Part shown: positions 29,604-61,820 of the stretch, piece after piece | Layout of the letters: the number at the start of each line of letters is the position of its first letter | Position numbering within the stretch: the stretch's first letter is position 1 | Sequence record: NC_055721.1 | From: Escherichia phage EcS1 | Length of the DNA stretch: 64,000 bases | Reading direction: 5' to 3' (one strand) | Program-made: the position numbers and the translations under genes | The notes under the pieces: model-generated | Seen by the model: only the letters and a program-made list of their open reading frames with translations | The model's database searches: none | Told to the model about the DNA's origin: nothing

Positions 29604-29760
29604 AAGATTTTAAAATCAGTTTAATAGCTTTATATGCAAAGATTAATATCATACCAAATGCTATTAAGCCAGTCATACCACTAGCACAACCAACGCTGCA
29701 ACGCATGCAAGCAGAGCAACAACCAATCCTGCACAAAACAATGTAGCGCCTAAAGTCATT

Positions 29761-30057
29761 TTACTTTTCACACTTCACTTCCTTCAAAGGAGCTCGATAA
29801 TAACAAATGACACCGTTAGCATCTTTTACATAACGATTAACGTCATTCAACCATACTCTAAATTCCTGTGATTCATTATATGGCATTCCTACGAAAGCAA
29901 CACCATCAATCACTTTAACTTGCCATTGACCTGTCCAAGGTTTAATCGGGTCAGGCCAACTTGGGTCAACACGTTGCACAGGTTGTAGCTCAGGGACACT
30001 CTGGGAGCATCCAACCAAAAAGATAGATAAACATATGGCTAGAGATTTAAGTTTCAT
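29761..30057 (-). CDS. Outer-membrane spanin lipoprotein (o-spanin; T4 pseT.3 equivalent)
   Basis: Signal peptide with lipobox LVGC; overlaps the upstream i-spanin gene; position next to pseT. Confidence 0.7.
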   Translation of the reverse strand: MKLKSLAICLSIFLVGCSQSVPELQPVQRVDPSWPDPIKPWTGQWQVKVIDGVAFVGMPYNESQEFRVWLNDVNRYVKDANGVICYYRAPLKEVKCEK

Positions 30058-58044: not shown

Positions 58045-58698
58045 CTAAAGTGAAAAAGATTTGCAAAGTTTCCACTGAATTTCTGCATAAGCATATTTGT
58101 AGCCTAAATCCATCATTTCACTGATGAAGTAAGACTTGTTATCACGATTCAATGTATAAAGTCCTACAGCCAATTTAGTAGGCTTAGCAACACGTTTCAC
58201 TTCACCGCCAAAGTTAGGTGAAGAAGGCTTTTGAGAACGTGGTAGTTCTTGGTTAGTGAAAGCAGCTACATCGAATTCTGATTCTTGACGAGTATGGCCA
58301 GCATTAATCATCCAAGATTCATTGAACCCAAAACGACCTTTTATTGGCAGTTTAGCACGAGCATGTTTGTCACCAAGCTCAAGAGCTTTAGCACGCCATA
58401 CTTTATCGTGTCCATGACCTTCAGTTAATGCATGAGCTAGTTCATGAAGAATAATTTCTTCAACACATTCAGCTGGGATAGCAAAGAACCAATGCGCTTG
58501 AAAAGCAATTAGCTTTTTGCGATAGCTGCAATGAGCAATTTCATGTTTACGAGTAGAAGAAACTATTTTGAAGTCCCATCCATCTAAACCGTGTTGCTTA
58601 CACTTGGCTTCAAAGAAACCTTTAGCTGAATCCACTGAGTGGAATAAAACTCCATTGTGATAAAAAGCTTTGGAAGCGATACGTTCGATAAGATTCAT
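58045..58698 (-). CDS. Putative zinc metallopeptidase-like protein (HExxH motif; SprT/Wss1-like)
   Basis: ILHELAHALTEGHGHD contains HExxH plus downstream His; family assignment tentative. Confidence 0.4.
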   Translation of the reverse strand: MNLIERIASKAFYHNGVLFHSVDSAKGFFEAKCKQHGLDGWDFKIVSSTRKHEIAHCSYRKKLIAFQAHWFFAIPAECVEEIILHELAHALTEGHGHDKVWRAKALELGDKHARAKLPIKGRFGFNESWMINAGHTRQESEFDVAAFTNQELPRSQKPSSPNFGGEVKRVAKPTKLAVGLYTLNRDNKSYFISEMMDLGYKYAYAEIQWKLCKSFSL

Positions 58699-58726
58699 TT
58701 TGTTTCTCCATGTTGGTAGGATTGCT

Positions 58727-58754
58727 ATCTTATCATGTCTAGAGCAAAAGTAAA
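58727..58754 (-). promoter_or_regulatory. Early promoter (-35 TTTACT, 16 bp, -10 TAAGAT)
   Basis: Upstream of ATG 58698 (GGAG RBS). Confidence 0.45.
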
Positions 58755-58869
58755 CAGCCAATAAAAATATTTTTGGATGCGTAGGACAACGCCAGGGAGA
58801 TTTAATTTGAGAGGATGTAGAAACATAAAAGGGGCCCCTTTCGGAGTCCCTGCGCGTATCTGGCTAACC

Positions 58870-60243
58870 TTATTTGATTTCTTTAAGGTCTTTGGTGTAT
58901 TCAGTAACGACATCAGTCGTCTTCCAATACTCATGTTCTTCTTTTTTAGCTTTAGCTTCAAGTGCAAGCTTCTTGGCTTCATCAGAAGTAATATGATAGA
59001 TGTTCATTGCAACAAGTTTATCAGCATAATCAGGCCAAGTCTGAGAGACTTCTTCTAACAACTCTTTACGAGTCTTGCCTTGTAATACGATCTTACCATC
59101 AATAACTGTTTTAATGAATTGAGCCTTAGCCAAAGCTAATTTAAAGGCTTCTTCAGTTTCACAGATTTTAAGGTCAATACGTTTTTGAATATAAACTTTA
59201 CGAACATCGACGAATCGACGAATCAAATCAGAAGCACATGTGAATTCTTCTAATTTACCCTTCTCATTAATTACTGTAATGTTCTGGGTACGTCGTTCAA
59301 CAAGCCCAAAGTCTTTCATGATTTTTTCATGTCGTTGTTCTTCATCTTCACTAAGAATATATTCTTTACGAAGTTTAACCTTGAAGCCAAAACCGGTTTT
59401 AGAACAATCATCATCATATGTAATGAAACCAGCATCTTCAAGTGGGTCAAGAATCTTGGTTACATATTTTTCACGGTCCCACTTATATGGAACTTCACTG
59501 ATATAAAGCTGAGTTCGTGAAGTGAATTTATACTTACCACGAATTTCATATTTACCTGGCTCAGTTGTAATAACTTCACCTTCGAATCGTGGGAAAACCA
59601 CATCAGGTTCTTTATTCAACTTACCTTTAAGAGCTAGTTTAGTACACTCAACAACAGATGCTAAACCATGCGGCATGATGTTAGTAGCATACCCTGTAGC
59701 GATACCAGACACACCATTCAAAAGAACAGTTGGAATCACAGGCAAATAAAAACGTGGTGGGATATGTTCTTTATCTTCGTGTTCAGGAGCATATTCAGAG
59801 TCTTTATAAATGTGATAGAAGTTCTCTGAAACTCGCCCGAAAATATAACGTGATGCTGCCGCTTCTTGAACTAATCGAGAACCAAAGTTACCTTCGCCAT
59901 CTAGCATTGGAAGATTATTGTTCCAATCGTTCGCCATTAATGCGCCTGCATCTTGGGCTGAACCTTCGCCATGGTGATAACCCAAGTCGGCTACGCCACC
60001 TGCAATAGAAGCAAGTTTATGGAACTTAGTTTTATTACCACGAGCTAAATCTAATGCACGATGGACCACAAATCGTTGGACTGGTTTAAAGCCATCAATC
60101 ATATTAGGAATGGCCCGGTTTTCAACCGTATACATTGCATAAGCTAAGGCTTCGTTATCGATAATACTTTTTAGACCACGAATATTCAATGAATCTAAAG
60201 TATCTGTTGTTTGCTTAAAAACAATATCTAAAATATCTGCCAT
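58870..60243 (-). CDS. 52: DNA topoisomerase II medium subunit gp52
   Basis: 457 aa (T4 gp52 442); GyrA/ParC-like N-terminal region; position after motA. Confidence 0.8.
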   Translation of the reverse strand: MADILDIVFKQTTDTLDSLNIRGLKSIIDNEALAYAMYTVENRAIPNMIDGFKPVQRFVVHRALDLARGNKTKFHKLASIAGGVADLGYHHGEGSAQDAGALMANDWNNNLPMLDGEGNFGSRLVQEAAASRYIFGRVSENFYHIYKDSEYAPEHEDKEHIPPRFYLPVIPTVLLNGVSGIATGYATNIMPHGLASVVECTKLALKGKLNKEPDVVFPRFEGEVITTEPGKYEIRGKYKFTSRTQLYISEVPYKWDREKYVTKILDPLEDAGFITYDDDCSKTGFGFKVKLRKEYILSEDEEQRHEKIMKDFGLVERRTQNITVINEKGKLEEFTCASDLIRRFVDVRKVYIQKRIDLKICETEEAFKLALAKAQFIKTVIDGKIVLQGKTRKELLEEVSQTWPDYADKLVAMNIYHITSDEAKKLALEAKAKKEEHEYWKTTDVVTEYTKDLKEIK

Positions 60244-60378
60244 TTTAAAATCCTAGTAATGAACCGATGTTTAGTATAACATCAAATAAGAATAGCATAA
60301 TAGAAATAACTCCATAAGATATCCCTATACATATTGCCAAAAAGAGCACCACAAGGGTGTCCATAATAGTTGTTAGTT

Positions 60379-60537
60379 TCATGAATTAGCGTGTCTAATC
60401 CAACCACAGAAAGAAGAAATAACCCAAACGATTAAGAATCCACCAATTGCAAAGGCCGAAGGAACCCATGCACCAGCGAAATACATTGTTGTCATAATGA
60501 TAGCTAAAATAAATTCAAGAAAATAAATTAAGACCAT
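60379..60537 (-). CDS. Small hydrophobic membrane peptide (52 aa), one of four tandem tiny ORFs (ac-like region)
   Basis: Manually translated MVLIYFLEFILAIIMTTMYFAGAWVPSAFAIGGFLIVWVISSFCGWIRHANS; not in ORF track. Confidence 0.3.
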   Translation of the reverse strand: MVLIYFLEFILAIIMTTMYFAGAWVPSAFAIGGFLIVWVISSFCGWIRHANS

Positions 60538-60661
60538 GATTAATCCTTGATACTTAGTAAGAGAATCAATGCCAAAGAACCTTGAGCTACACTTTGCGAA
60601 ATTACAGTAGCTTCACCAGTATGAAGAGTCCAGAAACATAGACCAGCCCAAATGCAAGCAC

Positions 60662-60825
60662 AAATACCTTTTACCATTTAATCACCCCACAGAGAATAGC
60701 TAGACGTTCGAAGCCGATAAATGCAACACTAAAACAAATAACGGCAACAACGGTAGAAGTAACTGGGAGACCTGCCCATAAGAAGGTTCCCATACAAGTC
60801 ATAACGGCTGTCATAAAAAGATAGC
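60662..60825 (-). CDS. Small hydrophobic membrane peptide (~54 aa)
   Basis: Manually translated MLLGYLFMTAVMTCMGTFLWAGLPVTSTVVAVICFSVAFIGFERLAILCGVIKW; coordinates approximate. Confidence 0.3.
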
Positions 60826-60848
60826 CTAATAGCATTATATCTCGCATA

Positions 60849-61310
60849 TTAACTCTGCAGAATAAAGTTAAAATTATCGCCTAACATCAAGTTCATTTCT
60901 GTGATGTTCTGATATTCTTCATTATGGCGACGAGTGAAAGCTAAAGCCAATTGACCTTTGCCAAAACCAGTAGTCAATGGTTTCATTTTTTCGATTGGTA
61001 GATAAAGCACTTCATACAGAACACCATTGTAGTGCATGGTACGGTTTGCTTGGCTACGGTCAGAACGAATGTTACTAAGTACACCACGGAAGCCATGACC
61101 AGAACGTTGACGACCAATTGCAAAACGAGCAGCAACTTGACGATAACCCATAGCGCCTTTAACAACAAAATAAAAACCAGGCTGAGCTAGCACTTCATTA
61201 TCTACATAACCAACTGTTTCGCCATTACGGATAAAACAAACAGTAGTAGCGCCAACATCTTTCAGAATATCACGGGTCATATTTGTACGGGTCATATTTG
61301 TACGGGTCAT
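60849..61310 (-). CDS. ndd: Nucleoid disruption protein Ndd
   Basis: Matches T4 Ndd as recalled (PGFYF, KMKPLTTGFGKGQLALAFTR identical, NFKF.LQ); start at first ATG after GAGGAA RBS, inside a 15-bp tandem repeat. Confidence 0.85.
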   Translation of the reverse strand: MTRTNMTRTNMTRDILKDVGATTVCFIRNGETVGYVDNEVLAQPGFYFVVKGAMGYRQVAARFAIGRQRSGHGFRGVLSNIRSDRSQANRTMHYNGVLYEVLYLPIEKMKPLTTGFGKGQLALAFTRRHNEEYQNITEMNLMLGDNFNFILQS

Positions 61311-61313
61311 ATT
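61272..61313 (-). repeat. In-frame 15-bp tandem repeat (ACGGGTCATATTTGT x2.8) encoding MTRTN-MTRTN-MTRD at the ndd 5' end
   Basis: Two perfect copies plus 12-bp partial copy; each unit carries an ATG on the coding strand. Confidence 0.85.
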
Positions 61314-61452
61314 AATTTCCTCAATAAGTTTAAGTTTTATACTCCACGGACATTTTAACATGTCCGGTTTAAAGCTTACCACCATCCAAAGTACTGTGGA
61401 GCCATTAGTCCAATTAAAAAGAAACCAATCATCATTAAAATACGGTCATAAT

Positions 61453-61641
61453 TCATTTGTTAGCCCCATTCCAGATAACTTCTACGACTGATTTTAAACC
61501 TTCTTTTTGAACAGCATCAACAAGATTGTATGCAACCCAACCTTGGAAAGCCCATGAAGCCAAAATCGCTACAAGTACAAAACCAAAGAACCACGGGAAC
61601 ACTTTAGAAATCCATGAACCTTGACGATTAAGTTTACGCAT
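61453..61641 (-). CDS. Small membrane protein (ndd.x-like)
   Basis: 62-aa ORF with central hydrophobic helix (WFFGFVLVAILASWAF). Confidence 0.35.
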   Translation of the reverse strand: MRKLNRQGSWISKVFPWFFGFVLVAILASWAFQGWVAYNLVDAVQKEGLKSVVEVIWNGANK

Positions 61642-61791
61642 ATTTTCCTCAGAAATAGTAATTAAAAGTTATCCAGAATAAATCCCAACACAACACTGTA
61701 ACAGCAGTTAAAGATAGTGCTAAGCAAACTAAGATGTTTCGAAGCCAAATCTTTAAAGTTTTCATAAGTACTCCCATGTTTGTGTAGGAGT

Positions 61792-61820
61792 ACTATACCA
61801 TGTTAATCAGACGTTGTAAA
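61792..61820 (-). promoter_or_regulatory. Early promoter (-35 TTTACA, 17 bp, -10 TATAGT) overlapping 3' end of denB-like gene
   Basis: Cassette similar to motA promoter; drives tiny TM ORF at ~61649-61765. Confidence 0.45.

Follow-up and report, generated by a model that had tools for sequence, protein, structure and literature searches.

Four small predicted membrane protein genes in the ndd-gene 52 interval of Escherichia phage EcS1, a probable counterpart of the T4 52.1-ac-stp cluster

The T4 cluster and the EcS1 interval

Phage T4 carries three small genes, 52.1, ac, and stp, between ndd and gene 52. Small membrane proteins serve T4 in superinfection exclusion and lysis inhibition, and Stp targets EcoprrI and thereby triggers PrrC. 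AcrZ, a single kinked helix, is a small inner-membrane regulator of bacteria. The T4 gene ac was defined genetically, and its expression sensitizes Escherichia coli to acriflavine; the G38R change abolishes this effect and makes T4 acriflavine resistant (bioRxiv 10.1101/2025.06.30.662393). From phenotype and structure prediction, the same 2025 preprint put forward the hypothesis that Ac interferes with AcrAB-TolC efflux (bioRxiv 10.1101/2025.06.30.662393). The T4 deletion sa-delta-9, which removes 3.4 kb comprising 52.1, ac, stp, ndd, ndd.1-6, and denB and implicates no single gene, abolishes the phage-induced stimulation of phospholipid (phosphatidylglycerol) synthesis and gives a yield of 50% of the wild type (PMC6071114). 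In T4-like phages, this part of the genome has been described as a hyperplastic region with cassette shuffling (PMC4122927).

A stretch of 64,000 nucleotides of the EcS1 genome (NC_055721.1), hereafter the window, includes the corresponding interval. The four-ORF array found there is an already known and ordinary feature, the T4-like 52.1/ac region, with families present in PHROGs and Pfam. Most probably, it corresponds in EcS1 to the T4 52.1-ac-stp cluster and encodes a set of accessory predicted inner-membrane proteins of 45 to 58 aa that would modulate the host envelope. The features discussed are as follows.

ndd (nucleoid disruption protein), 60849..61310, minus strand: 153 aa from the ATG; phrog_1102, E 1.1e-50; aligned with seven Ndd proteins; upstream flank
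orfA, 60671..60847, minus strand: 58 aa, family A (phrog_5941), predicted as a two-helix hairpin; the tail ER...CGV.K is conserved
orfB, 60540..60677, minus strand: 45 aa, homolog of T4 Ac (acridine sensitivity/'resistance'), phrog_2501
orfC, 60379..60537, minus strand: 52 aa, family C (phrog_9347), predicted as a two-helix hairpin; the turn G-x-W-x-P is conserved
orfD, 60245..60382, minus strand: 45 aa, homolog of T4 gp52.1 (DUF7396), start overlapping the orfC stop (ATGA)
gene 52 (topoisomerase II medium subunit), 58870..60243, minus strand: downstream flank, with gp52 at the syntenic position in Gravdalen, CHI14, and T4
orfE, 61649..61765, minus strand: 38 aa (42 aa with an upstream ATG as start), Ndd.4 homolog, Shine-Dalgarno (SD) sequence GGGAG before the 38-aa start
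orfF, 61453..61641, minus strand: 62 aa, Ndd.2a homolog ('periplasmic protein'); phrog_2401, E 1.3e-20; Pfam DUF7248, 95 bits
orfG, 61376..61456, minus strand: 26-aa hydrophobic ORF in the Ndd.2 position
post-o-spanin ORF, 29673..29771, minus strand: 32 aa, hydrophobic, GTG start, SD sequence AGGAAG, ATG at codon 5

The gap between ndd and gene 52 (605 nt) contains four minus-strand ORFs of 58, 45, 52, and 45 aa, which together tile 96% of the sequence separating the stop codon of ndd from the start codon of gene 52 and whose products are all strongly hydrophobic (GRAVY of 1.1 to 1.9). An earlier note on this DNA had described four consecutive hydrophobic minus-strand ORFs filling the gap, and the ORF listing agrees; all four are missing from the 60-aa ORF track because each is shorter than 60 aa. 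In 2,000 dinucleotide-preserving shuffles, a mean of 0.9 comparable ORFs was found, with a mean coverage of 23% and a maximum of 91%, and the observed 96% was never reached. The 5' end of the array lies at 60847 rather than at the 60825 given earlier, and family alignments favor the longest forms, of 58 and 45 aa, over the previous sizes of 54 and 39 aa.

Overlapping start and stop codons had also been described, and they are present at only two of the five junctions, orfA/orfB (7 nt) and orfC/orfD (ATGA), whereas the other three have spacers of 1 to 2 nt. SD sequences precede orfB (GGGGTGA), orfC (AAGGA), and ndd (GAGGA), and those of orfA and orfD are weak. The four genes, which run in the same direction as ndd and gene 52, would be translated as one unit, in which orfA and orfD would depend on coupling to the preceding gene; the 1- to 2-nt spacers or overlapping stop and start codons fit such an arrangement. 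The gap also contains out-of-frame ORFs of 20 to 40 aa.

Between positions 60245 and 60848, no site resembling a promoter or a terminator was reported. Upstream of orfE, a sigma-70/T4-early-like match at 61792-61820 on the minus strand (TTTACA-17-TATAGT with TG) is a candidate promoter for the unit from orfE to gene 52, and the total count of such matches in the window is not above that in shuffles. A MotA-type middle promoter match inside orfB (60660-60635) was rejected; the window contains 20 such patterns compared with 14 ± 4 expected, so the match is not evidence of a promoter.

Exact protein look-ups indicated that the EcS1 record contains three of the four ORFs, orfA (47 aa, from a shorter start), orfB ('Acridine resistance'), and orfC (hypothetical gp158), and that orfF is annotated as well. 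orfD is absent from the protein collection in both its 45-aa and its 39-aa form, and the gp52.1 homolog is therefore probably unannotated in EcS1.

Protein families, selection, and predicted structure

Each of the four proteins falls into a phage protein family. The PHROG profile search matched orfA to phrog_5941 (E 3.4e-23, residues 1 to 57 of 57). Homologs of orfA were found by tblastn in 294 phage records, adjoining ndd wherever it is annotated among the matches listed. Family A is present in 29 of the 50 surveyed loci, directly after the ndd stop except in two loci of the Gelderlandvirus type (L032/L033), where Ac comes first. orfB matches phrog_2501 (E 3.5e-13, residues 1 to 42 of 45), to which T4 Ac matches at 2.2e-25, confirming the earlier guess, made from T4, that an Ac homolog is part of the array. 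Like Ac of T4, it lies on the early strand in the ndd-gene 52 interval, and it carries W10 and SQSVAQG, an instance of the conserved SQxxAQG motif that includes the glycine equivalent to T4 G38 in the family alignment.

orfC matches phrog_9347 (E 1.1e-11, residues 1 to 52 of 53). Its tblastn matches at E<=1, weaker ones included, come from 111 phage records, with 86 covering at least 80% of the query, and among the records listed they also lie beside ndd. Family C is found in 25 surveyed loci, and in its turn the residues G22 and P26 are fully conserved and W24 almost so. orfD matches phrog_3595 (E 1e-10; T4 gp52.1, 1e-25) and Pfam DUF7396 (PF24129) with 36.7 bits compared with a gathering cutoff of 27. 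It lies directly upstream of gene 52 and has the N-terminal MK(K), YG, and LF-x-x-D/R-V-I motifs in an alignment of 31 unique members, with F in place of the terminal W of the gp52.1 family. In the survey, the 52.1 BLAST cluster comprises 44 ORFs, which sit immediately upstream of gene 52.

The four families are unrelated and do not form a duplicated array, since all-against-all hhalign probabilities among the ORFs were <=1%. No named function emerged for any of them; the PHROG matches are all labeled 'unknown function', and NCBIfam and PADLOC gave no matches. In Pfam, the array and its neighbors matched only DUF7396 and DUF7248. Profiles of Ac and 52.1 found no relatives among solved structures, with one spurious match (E 2.7), and for families A and C a function is assigned in neither the profile libraries nor the literature searched. 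No relevant publication on ribosome profiling of small proteins in T4 turned up in a literature search.

Conservation of the micro-ORFs in relatives, set beforehand as a test, was found by PHROG matching, tblastn, and synteny, and homologs are conserved in both length and position from genus to genus at 30 to 50% identity. Between EcS1 and Gravdalen, its closest relative, pN was 0.08 and pS 0.32 for orfA (pN/pS 0.25), 0.09 and 0.43 for orfC (0.21), and the pN/pS ratio for Ac was 0.63. The family median dN/dS ranged from 0.35 to 0.49. By these ratios, the ORF frames are under purifying selection, with pN/pS of about 0.2 to 0.6, and the expectation that some of the ORFs are real genes holds for all four. 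Ac and gp52.1 evolve fast, with pN/pS around 0.6 to 0.8 in some pairs, which points to weak constraint beyond hydrophobicity and a few motifs. In Gravdalen, 52.1 is a frameshifted and deleted pseudogene, in line with dispensability of this gene.

The strong hydrophobicity of the four products and the AlphaFold2 hairpins of A and C agree with the earlier description of small membrane proteins, for which insertion and topology are predictions only. The same description gave each protein a single transmembrane helix, whereas orfA and orfC are predicted to form two-helix hairpins, with helices at residues 2 to 25 and 31 to 52 for orfA (pLDDT 77) and at residues 2 to 21 and 28 to 51 for orfC (pLDDT 87.5). 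Both models have basic residues at either end and a neutral turn, suggesting an N-in/C-in topology. Conserved charged residues are predicted at or inside the membrane, namely, the ER pair in A and Glu8 in C.

The ndd-gene 52 slot and other small ORFs in related phages

A survey of 50 ndd-52 gaps, representing 48 distinct related loci, with ORFs clustered by BLAST, found one to five micro-ORFs per gap, which belong to a recurrent set of five families (A, Stp, Ac, C, and 52.1). At least four micro-ORFs are present in 10 of the 48 distinct loci, EcS1 included, so the number in EcS1, previously called unusual, is not; T4 has three in this gap and a JS98-like genome five. Judged by this gene content, the gap is a plastic slot, and the subset and order of the five families in it vary among T4-like phages.

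Compared with the T4 genes (NC_000866, T4p265-267), the EcS1 array has in common the slot, strand, tight packing, and Ac and gp52.1 families, and both sets include predicted membrane proteins of 45 to 51 aa. However, identity is low (24% for Ac and 32% for gp52.1), EcS1 has no stp, and it adds A after ndd and C between Ac and 52.1, both absent from T4. Stp (phrog_6763), a hydrophilic peptide of 25 to 26 aa after ndd, is found in the gap of T4 and in another 15 of the surveyed loci, where it may adjoin family A; no ORF in the window gap clusters with it, and none of the four ORFs matches phrog_6763. The JS98-like (Dhakavirus) locus (L021) has the order A-Stp-Ac-C-52.1, which is that of EcS1 plus Stp. 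Four ORFs in a gap of 608 to 611 nt, similar to the 609 nt given for EcS1 in this comparison, are found in Kanagawavirus (IME523 and CIP9) and Edwardsiella phage PEi20. The Kanagawavirus order is A-C-(Ac-like)-52.1, in contrast to A-Ac-C-52.1 in EcS1, and its Ac-like protein is very divergent and only tentatively assigned to the Ac family (hhalign E 0.002). The Ac-like form of the Moonvirus type (L038) matches phrog_2501 at E 0.05.

The T4 genes ndd.1-ndd.6, between denB and ndd, are of the same style, with overlapping tiny hydrophobic ORFs, and this interval contains three ORFs in EcS1 versus eight in T4. The earlier note had pointed to a micro-ORF of 38 aa at 61649-61765, which, as orfE, proved to have a good SD sequence (GGGAG) and to be a homolog of Ndd.4: it clusters with T4 Ndd.4 by BLAST in a family found in 36 of 45 loci. 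The CHI14/Gravdalen counterpart matches phrog_3098 (E 2e-13), and the orfE sequence of the window itself gave no direct PHROG match. orfF is an Ndd.2a homolog. orfG, a singleton in the clustering that is absent from Gravdalen and CHI14 and scores only 0.5 bits against the Ndd.2 family HMM, is possibly a truncated Ndd.2 remnant.

A further micro-ORF had been placed after the o-spanin gene at 29673-29759 with 28 aa. Its existence is borne out, with a match to phrog_26334 (E 1.8e-6) and a frame kept in Gravdalen (annotated, 33 aa) and CHI14, and it has a coding signature, with pS of 0.55 and pN of 0.15 in frame compared with pN and pS of 0.27 and 0.26 and of 0.34 and 0.00 in the other frames. Its length needs revision, as the start is likely the conserved GTG at 29771 (32 aa) and not the ATG at 29759.

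Possible roles of the micro-proteins

As the EcS1 version of the T4 cluster, the four genes would encode proteins that insert early during infection into the inner membrane of the host, where they would modulate envelope functions, with Ac leading to acridine accumulation in infected cells. The genes may be dispensable and host specific, which would account for their gain, loss, and decay among relatives. A membrane-targeted role in host interaction, as the earlier note had proposed, is plausible by analogy with the T4 Ac and sa-delta-9 phenotypes.

Like Stp, the micro-proteins might instead take part in phage-defense conflicts, each inhibiting or decoying a membrane-associated defense system of the host, which is considered unlikely. 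Such a conflict would explain rapid turnover; patchy presence and pseudogenization are typical of accessory counter-defense genes, the region is hyperplastic (PMC4122927), and Stp shares the gap. However, Stp, a hydrophilic peptide, has no relationship to the four families, and PADLOC, a library of defense rather than anti-defense proteins, gave no matches. It is quite unlikely that the products are superinfection exclusion or lysis-timing peptides that, like Imm and Sp or RI and RIII of T4, block secondary DNA entry or signal lysis inhibition. They are small membrane proteins of the early region, and rIIB, which is membrane associated and exclusion related, is nearby in relatives, but scans of PHROG, Pfam, NCBIfam, and PADLOC found no match to these exclusion and antiholin families, all PHROG matches being labeled 'unknown function'. 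In addition, the sole characterized member, Ac, has a drug accumulation phenotype, and T4 with the region deleted still reaches 50% of the yield, with no exclusion defect reported (PMC6071114).

A more specific proposal, that gp52.1 (orfD) is a phage mimic of host AcrZ that binds AcrB together with Ac and disables drug efflux, is very unlikely. AcrZ (PF10766) and the phage proteins are similar in size and hydrophobicity, with a weak motif likeness to gp52.1 and a conceptual link between Ac and efflux, since the adjacent ac is proposed to act on AcrAB-TolC (bioRxiv 10.1101/2025.06.30.662393). In a comparison picked after the resemblance had been seen by eye, aligning the 52.1 family with AcrZ of E. 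coli (sequence checked against PDB 4C48_C) by hhalign gave a score of 20.3 (P 3.5e-4, 31 columns) with the common pattern G.iYG...F.iFS, whereas 200 composition-preserving shuffles of AcrZ residues 1 to 38 gave a mean of 9.4 (sd 2.1) and at most 16.9, and reversing the sequence gave 8.9. The hhalign probability was only 25 to 37% and was not improved by the AcrZ family profile, Pfam PF10766 was not matched at E<=1, and a PDB-wide profile search did not return AcrZ at E<=10. Moreover, the invariant Pro16 of AcrZ has no counterpart in gp52.1, Ac shows no similarity to AcrZ, and the single kinked helix of AcrZ differs from the hairpins predicted for A and C, with no significant family match. The resemblance, above shuffled controls and far from significance in unbiased searches, may be taken as only a lead. 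The wider scheme, in which gp52.1 as a diverged AcrZ mimic and Ac would form a two-part module disabling AcrAB-TolC early while A and C would target other inner-membrane machines, is very improbable; phospholipid synthesis is named as an example of the latter because of the T4 sa-delta-9 phenotype.

Finally, chance open frames in a T-rich ndd-gene 52 spacer, hydrophobic because T-rich codons encode hydrophobic residues, would fit the very short ORFs, the absence of a good SD sequence before orfA and orfD, and the out-of-frame ORFs in the gap, but this explanation is effectively refuted by conservation, with homolog length and position kept across genera at 30 to 50% identity and a full-length PHROG match for each frame, and is further opposed by pN being below pS in the ORF frames, by the failure of all 2,000 shuffles to reproduce the tiling, and by the genetic definition of T4 ac.

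As an EcS1 version of the T4 cluster, the array carries little weight as a discovery and has modest practical value. The EcS1 annotation can be corrected by adding the gp52.1, Ndd.4, and post-spanin homologs and by extending orfA, which is currently 11 codons too short. More broadly, five micro-protein families recur in one slot across T4-like genera, and A and C match hundreds of genomes. Since they are widespread and have no assigned function, families A and C are reasonable targets for studying how T-even phages may remodel the host envelope, including drug efflux and phospholipid synthesis.

The micro-ORF array and its families

The minus-strand gap running from the ndd stop codon (60849-60851) to the start of gene 52 (60243) contains four consecutive micro-ORFs, each with a full-length match to a PHROG family.

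Micro-ORFs of the ndd-gene 52 gap (lengths from the ORF listing)
60671-60847, minus strand: orfA, 58 aa, phrog_5941 (family A), E 3.4e-23
60540-60677, minus strand: orfB, 45 aa, phrog_2501, E 3.5e-13
60379-60537, minus strand: orfC, 52 aa, phrog_9347 (family C), E 1.1e-11
60245-60382, minus strand: orfD, 45 aa, phrog_3595, E 1e-10

Together, these ORFs span 96% of the gap. Coverage by ORFs of ≥39 aa in 2,000 dinucleotide-preserving shuffles averaged 23% (maximum, 91%) and never matched the observed value (0 of 2,000). All four products are strongly hydrophobic (GRAVY, 1.1 to 1.9), which together with the shuffle result indicates that the array is real and excludes a chance effect, in agreement with the earlier note made from the sequence alone. 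The 60245 end given there stands, and the 5' end is corrected slightly from 60825 to 60847. Overlapping start and stop codons, described there for the array, occur at two of the five junctions, orfA-orfB (7 nt shared) and orfC-orfD (ATGA), and not at the others, which read TAA-T-ATG (ndd-orfA), TAA-TC-ATG (orfB-orfC), and TAA-A-ATG (orfD-gene 52). Shine-Dalgarno sequences are clear for orfB (GGGGTGA) and orfC (AAGGA); no clear one precedes orfA or orfD, which would depend on translational coupling.

phrog_2501 includes T4 Ac, and phrog_3595 includes T4 gp52.1; orfD also matches Pfam DUF7396 (36.7 bits; threshold, 27). Since 52.1, ac, and stp occupy the same gap in T4, orfB is the Ac homologue that the earlier note had guessed at, and orfD is the gp52.1 homologue. 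T4 lacks families A and C, both of which are present in EcS1. Family A was found by tblastn in 294 phage records, adjoining ndd in those listed, among phages of Klebsiella, Enterobacter, Escherichia, Salmonella, Citrobacter, Serratia, Erwinia, and other hosts, and family C was found in 111 records (E ≤ 1), 86 of them with at least 80% query coverage. Searched against the whole database, the family A profile matched only phage and metagenomic proteins of 35 to 61 aa, none bearing a meaningful name. Profile comparison revealed no relationship among the four families, which rules out duplication as the origin of the array.

Gap content, coding signature, and predicted topology

EcS1 belongs to the species Kagamiyamavirus ecs1. 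In the phage collection it is closest to Winklervirus phages, among them Erwinia phage Gravdalen at 83% nucleotide identity; an identical Ndd occurs in one 175,437-bp IMG/VR contig. The gap was delimited in 43 IMG/VR loci with the Ndd profile and seven annotated phage regions (48 distinct loci), and all coding-strand ORFs were clustered. The gaps range from 227 to 862 nt and hold one to five micro-ORFs from five recurrent families: A (29 loci), Stp (16 loci), Ac (15 loci, plus 8 with divergent Ac-like ORFs), C (25 loci), and 52.1 (a cluster of 44 ORFs). All five are present, ordered A-Stp-Ac-C-52.1, in a tentatively JS98-like genome, and the EcS1 order A-Ac-C-52.1 is the same without Stp. Other arrangements are A-Stp-Ac-52.1 in ime09 (Tequatrovirus), Stp-Ac-C-52.1 in a locus tentatively assigned to phage IME281, and A-C-(Ac-like)-52.1 in Kanagawavirus phages and PEi20 (gap, 608 to 611 nt). 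Four or more micro-ORFs occur in 10 of the 48 distinct loci, EcS1 included, so four is at the high end but not the unusual number it had been taken for.

Turnover is visible between close relatives. Phage CHI14 lacks Ac, and in Gravdalen 52.1 has become a pseudogene that has lost 27 nt and carries a 1-nt frameshift producing an early TGA; its remains are the supposedly intergenic 107 nt that separate the orfC homologue from gene 52 (record positions 167988-168094), where the C-terminal ...DDILNIGSLLGF can still be recognized. Such turnover agrees with published work that describes the region as hyperplastic in T4-like genomes, with exchanged cassettes such as the ndd.4/.5 swap between T4 and PST (PMC4122927).

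An ORF of 43 to 49 aa at the Ac position was observed in four Kanagawavirus loci, PEi20, and three tentative Moonvirus-type loci. Its resemblance to Ac is limited to the W, a TG...T..S core, and the general pattern (hhalign E 0.002 against Ac; phrog_2501 E 0.05 for one form), and in Kanagawavirus it follows rather than precedes family C; either Ac has diverged strongly in these loci or an analogous ORF has replaced it.

In codon alignments of EcS1 with Gravdalen, pN and pS were 0.08 and 0.32 for family A (pN/pS, 0.25), 0.09 and 0.43 for family C (0.21), and 0.27 and 0.43 for Ac (0.63); median dN/dS across the families was 0.35 to 0.49. ORF lengths, start positions, and several motifs are kept across genera: G..F...GLP....ERL...CGV.K in family A, W..T...SV.SQ.LAQG in Ac, F.E...I...F.G.W.P in family C, and KK...YYG...LFISDVI...W in 52.1. 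The Ac motif contains the glycine equivalent to T4 G38, whose change to arginine confers acriflavine resistance (bioRxiv 10.1101/2025.06.30.662393). The identity and coding status of orfA to orfD are well supported.

AlphaFold2 models built with family alignments predict two-helix hairpins for families A (residues 2-25 and 31-52; pLDDT, 77) and C (2-21 and 28-51; pLDDT, 87.5), and a published ESMFold model of T4 Ac also has two short helices (bioRxiv 10.1101/2025.06.30.662393), so the "single transmembrane helix" of the earlier note is not the best description. Basic residues cluster at the N-terminus and in the C-tail, with neutral turns between the helices, a pattern that by the positive-inside rule suggests N-in/C-in hairpins. 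In gp52.1, the N-terminus is basic, YYG lies centrally, and the second half carries a conserved acidic residue.

Expression and possible function

A sequence scan found no promoter-like or terminator-like site inside the array, and a T4-early-like promoter match, by consensus only, lies at 61820-61792 (minus strand), upstream of orfE in the denB-ndd gap. The simplest arrangement would be a single, translationally coupled early unit running from this candidate promoter and orfE through ndd into gene 52. Within orfB, TGCTTGCA-12 nt-TATGTT (60635-60660, minus strand) resembles a T4 middle (MotA-dependent) promoter and could drive orfC, orfD, and gene 52; with 20 occurrences versus 14 ± 4 expected, the window shows no enrichment for this pattern.

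T4 Ac expressed in Escherichia coli causes sensitivity to acriflavine and ampicillin, and T4 delta-ac is resistant to acriflavine; interference with AcrAB-TolC was proposed by the authors without direct evidence (bioRxiv 10.1101/2025.06.30.662393) and is restated as an assumption elsewhere (PMC13250531). T4 carrying the sa-delta-9 deletion, in which 52.1, ac, stp, ndd, ndd.1-6, and denB are all missing, loses the phage-induced stimulation of phospholipid synthesis but still reaches 50% of the wild-type phage yield (PMC6071114). The favored reading is that orfA to orfD encode inner-membrane micro-proteins, host-specific and not essential to the phage, that would alter functions of the host envelope early in infection; we would give this envelope-modulation mechanism a roughly even chance. 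Host interaction, as the earlier note suggested, is plausible; its other suggestion, superinfection exclusion, found no supporting match in any family scan (PHROG, Pfam, NCBIfam, and PADLOC).

Because Ac has been linked to AcrAB-TolC, the families were compared with the AcrB-binding micro-protein AcrZ (query checked against PDB 4C48_C). A relationship of gp52.1 to AcrZ is improbable: the hhalign score of 20.3 (P 3.5e-4; probability, 37%; 31 columns) exceeds those of 200 composition-preserving shuffles of AcrZ residues 1-38 (9.4 ± 2.1; maximum, 16.9), but the probability falls to 25% with the AcrZ family profile, gp52.1 does not match the Pfam AcrZ model, a PDB-wide profile search with gp52.1 did not return AcrZ, and the invariant AcrZ Pro16 has no counterpart. 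No similarity was found between Ac and AcrZ.

Neighboring small genes and the EcS1 annotation

The two further micro-ORFs pointed out in the earlier note, orfE near denB and one after the o-spanin, proved to be conserved; orfF and orfG lie between orfE and ndd.

61649-61765: orfE, 38 aa (Shine-Dalgarno GGGAG), clustering with T4 Ndd.4
61453-61641: orfF, Ndd.2a (DUF7248)
61376-61456: orfG, 26 aa, a clustering singleton with only faint Ndd.2 resemblance
29673-29771: likely post-o-spanin gene, 32 aa, phrog_26334 (E 1.8e-6)

Among the micro-ORFs of the denB-ndd gap, Ndd.4 is the best conserved (36 of 45 loci), and the CHI14/Gravdalen counterpart of orfE matches phrog_3098. The post-o-spanin ORF is kept in Gravdalen (annotated, 33 aa) and CHI14. 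Conservation holds only from a GTG start codon with a Shine-Dalgarno sequence (GAAGGAA/AGGAAG) ahead of it, hence the likely extent of the gene; pS is 0.55 and pN 0.15 in frame, and pN is not below pS in the other two frames.

At the ndd start (61272-61313, minus strand), a perfect 15-nt tandem repeat of 2.8 copies encodes MTRTN-MTRTN-MTRD at the Ndd N-terminus, with three in-frame ATGs, whereas the MTR motif is single copy in the Ndd of Gravdalen, CHI14, and T4. The repeat looks like a recent slippage duplication and possibly creates alternative initiation sites. A stem-loop in the orfG-ndd interval (61345-61375, minus strand), a short way before the Shine-Dalgarno sequence of ndd, contains CGGACAT-GTTAAA-ATGTCCG inside a longer fold (MFE, -21.8 kcal/mol; z, -2.7 versus shuffles); having no T-run, it is not a classic terminator and might serve in RNA processing or stability. 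Downstream of gene 52, where T4 has motA.1/motA, a 238-aa ORF (58045-58761, minus strand) carries a HELAHAL (HExxH-type) motif, which would suggest a putative zinc-metallopeptidase-like protein.

The genes are real, and the cluster is of a known kind in a known, annotated phage; what is added for EcS1 is small annotation corrections. In the public record, orfA is a 47-aa hypothetical protein starting 11 codons late relative to the 58-aa form (60814-60847 omitted), orfB is named "Acridine resistance," and orfC is a hypothetical protein. Neither the 45-aa nor the 39-aa form of orfD had an exact match in protein look-ups, which makes it probable that orfD is unannotated. On the evidence of exact-sequence look-ups and of alignments of the families, which also favor the longer orfA, the annotation appears to lack the homologues of gp52.1 (60245-60382), Ndd.4 (61649-61765), and phrog_26334 (29673-29771). 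It is also worth pointing out that families A and C, assigned no function in the libraries or literature examined, are widespread.
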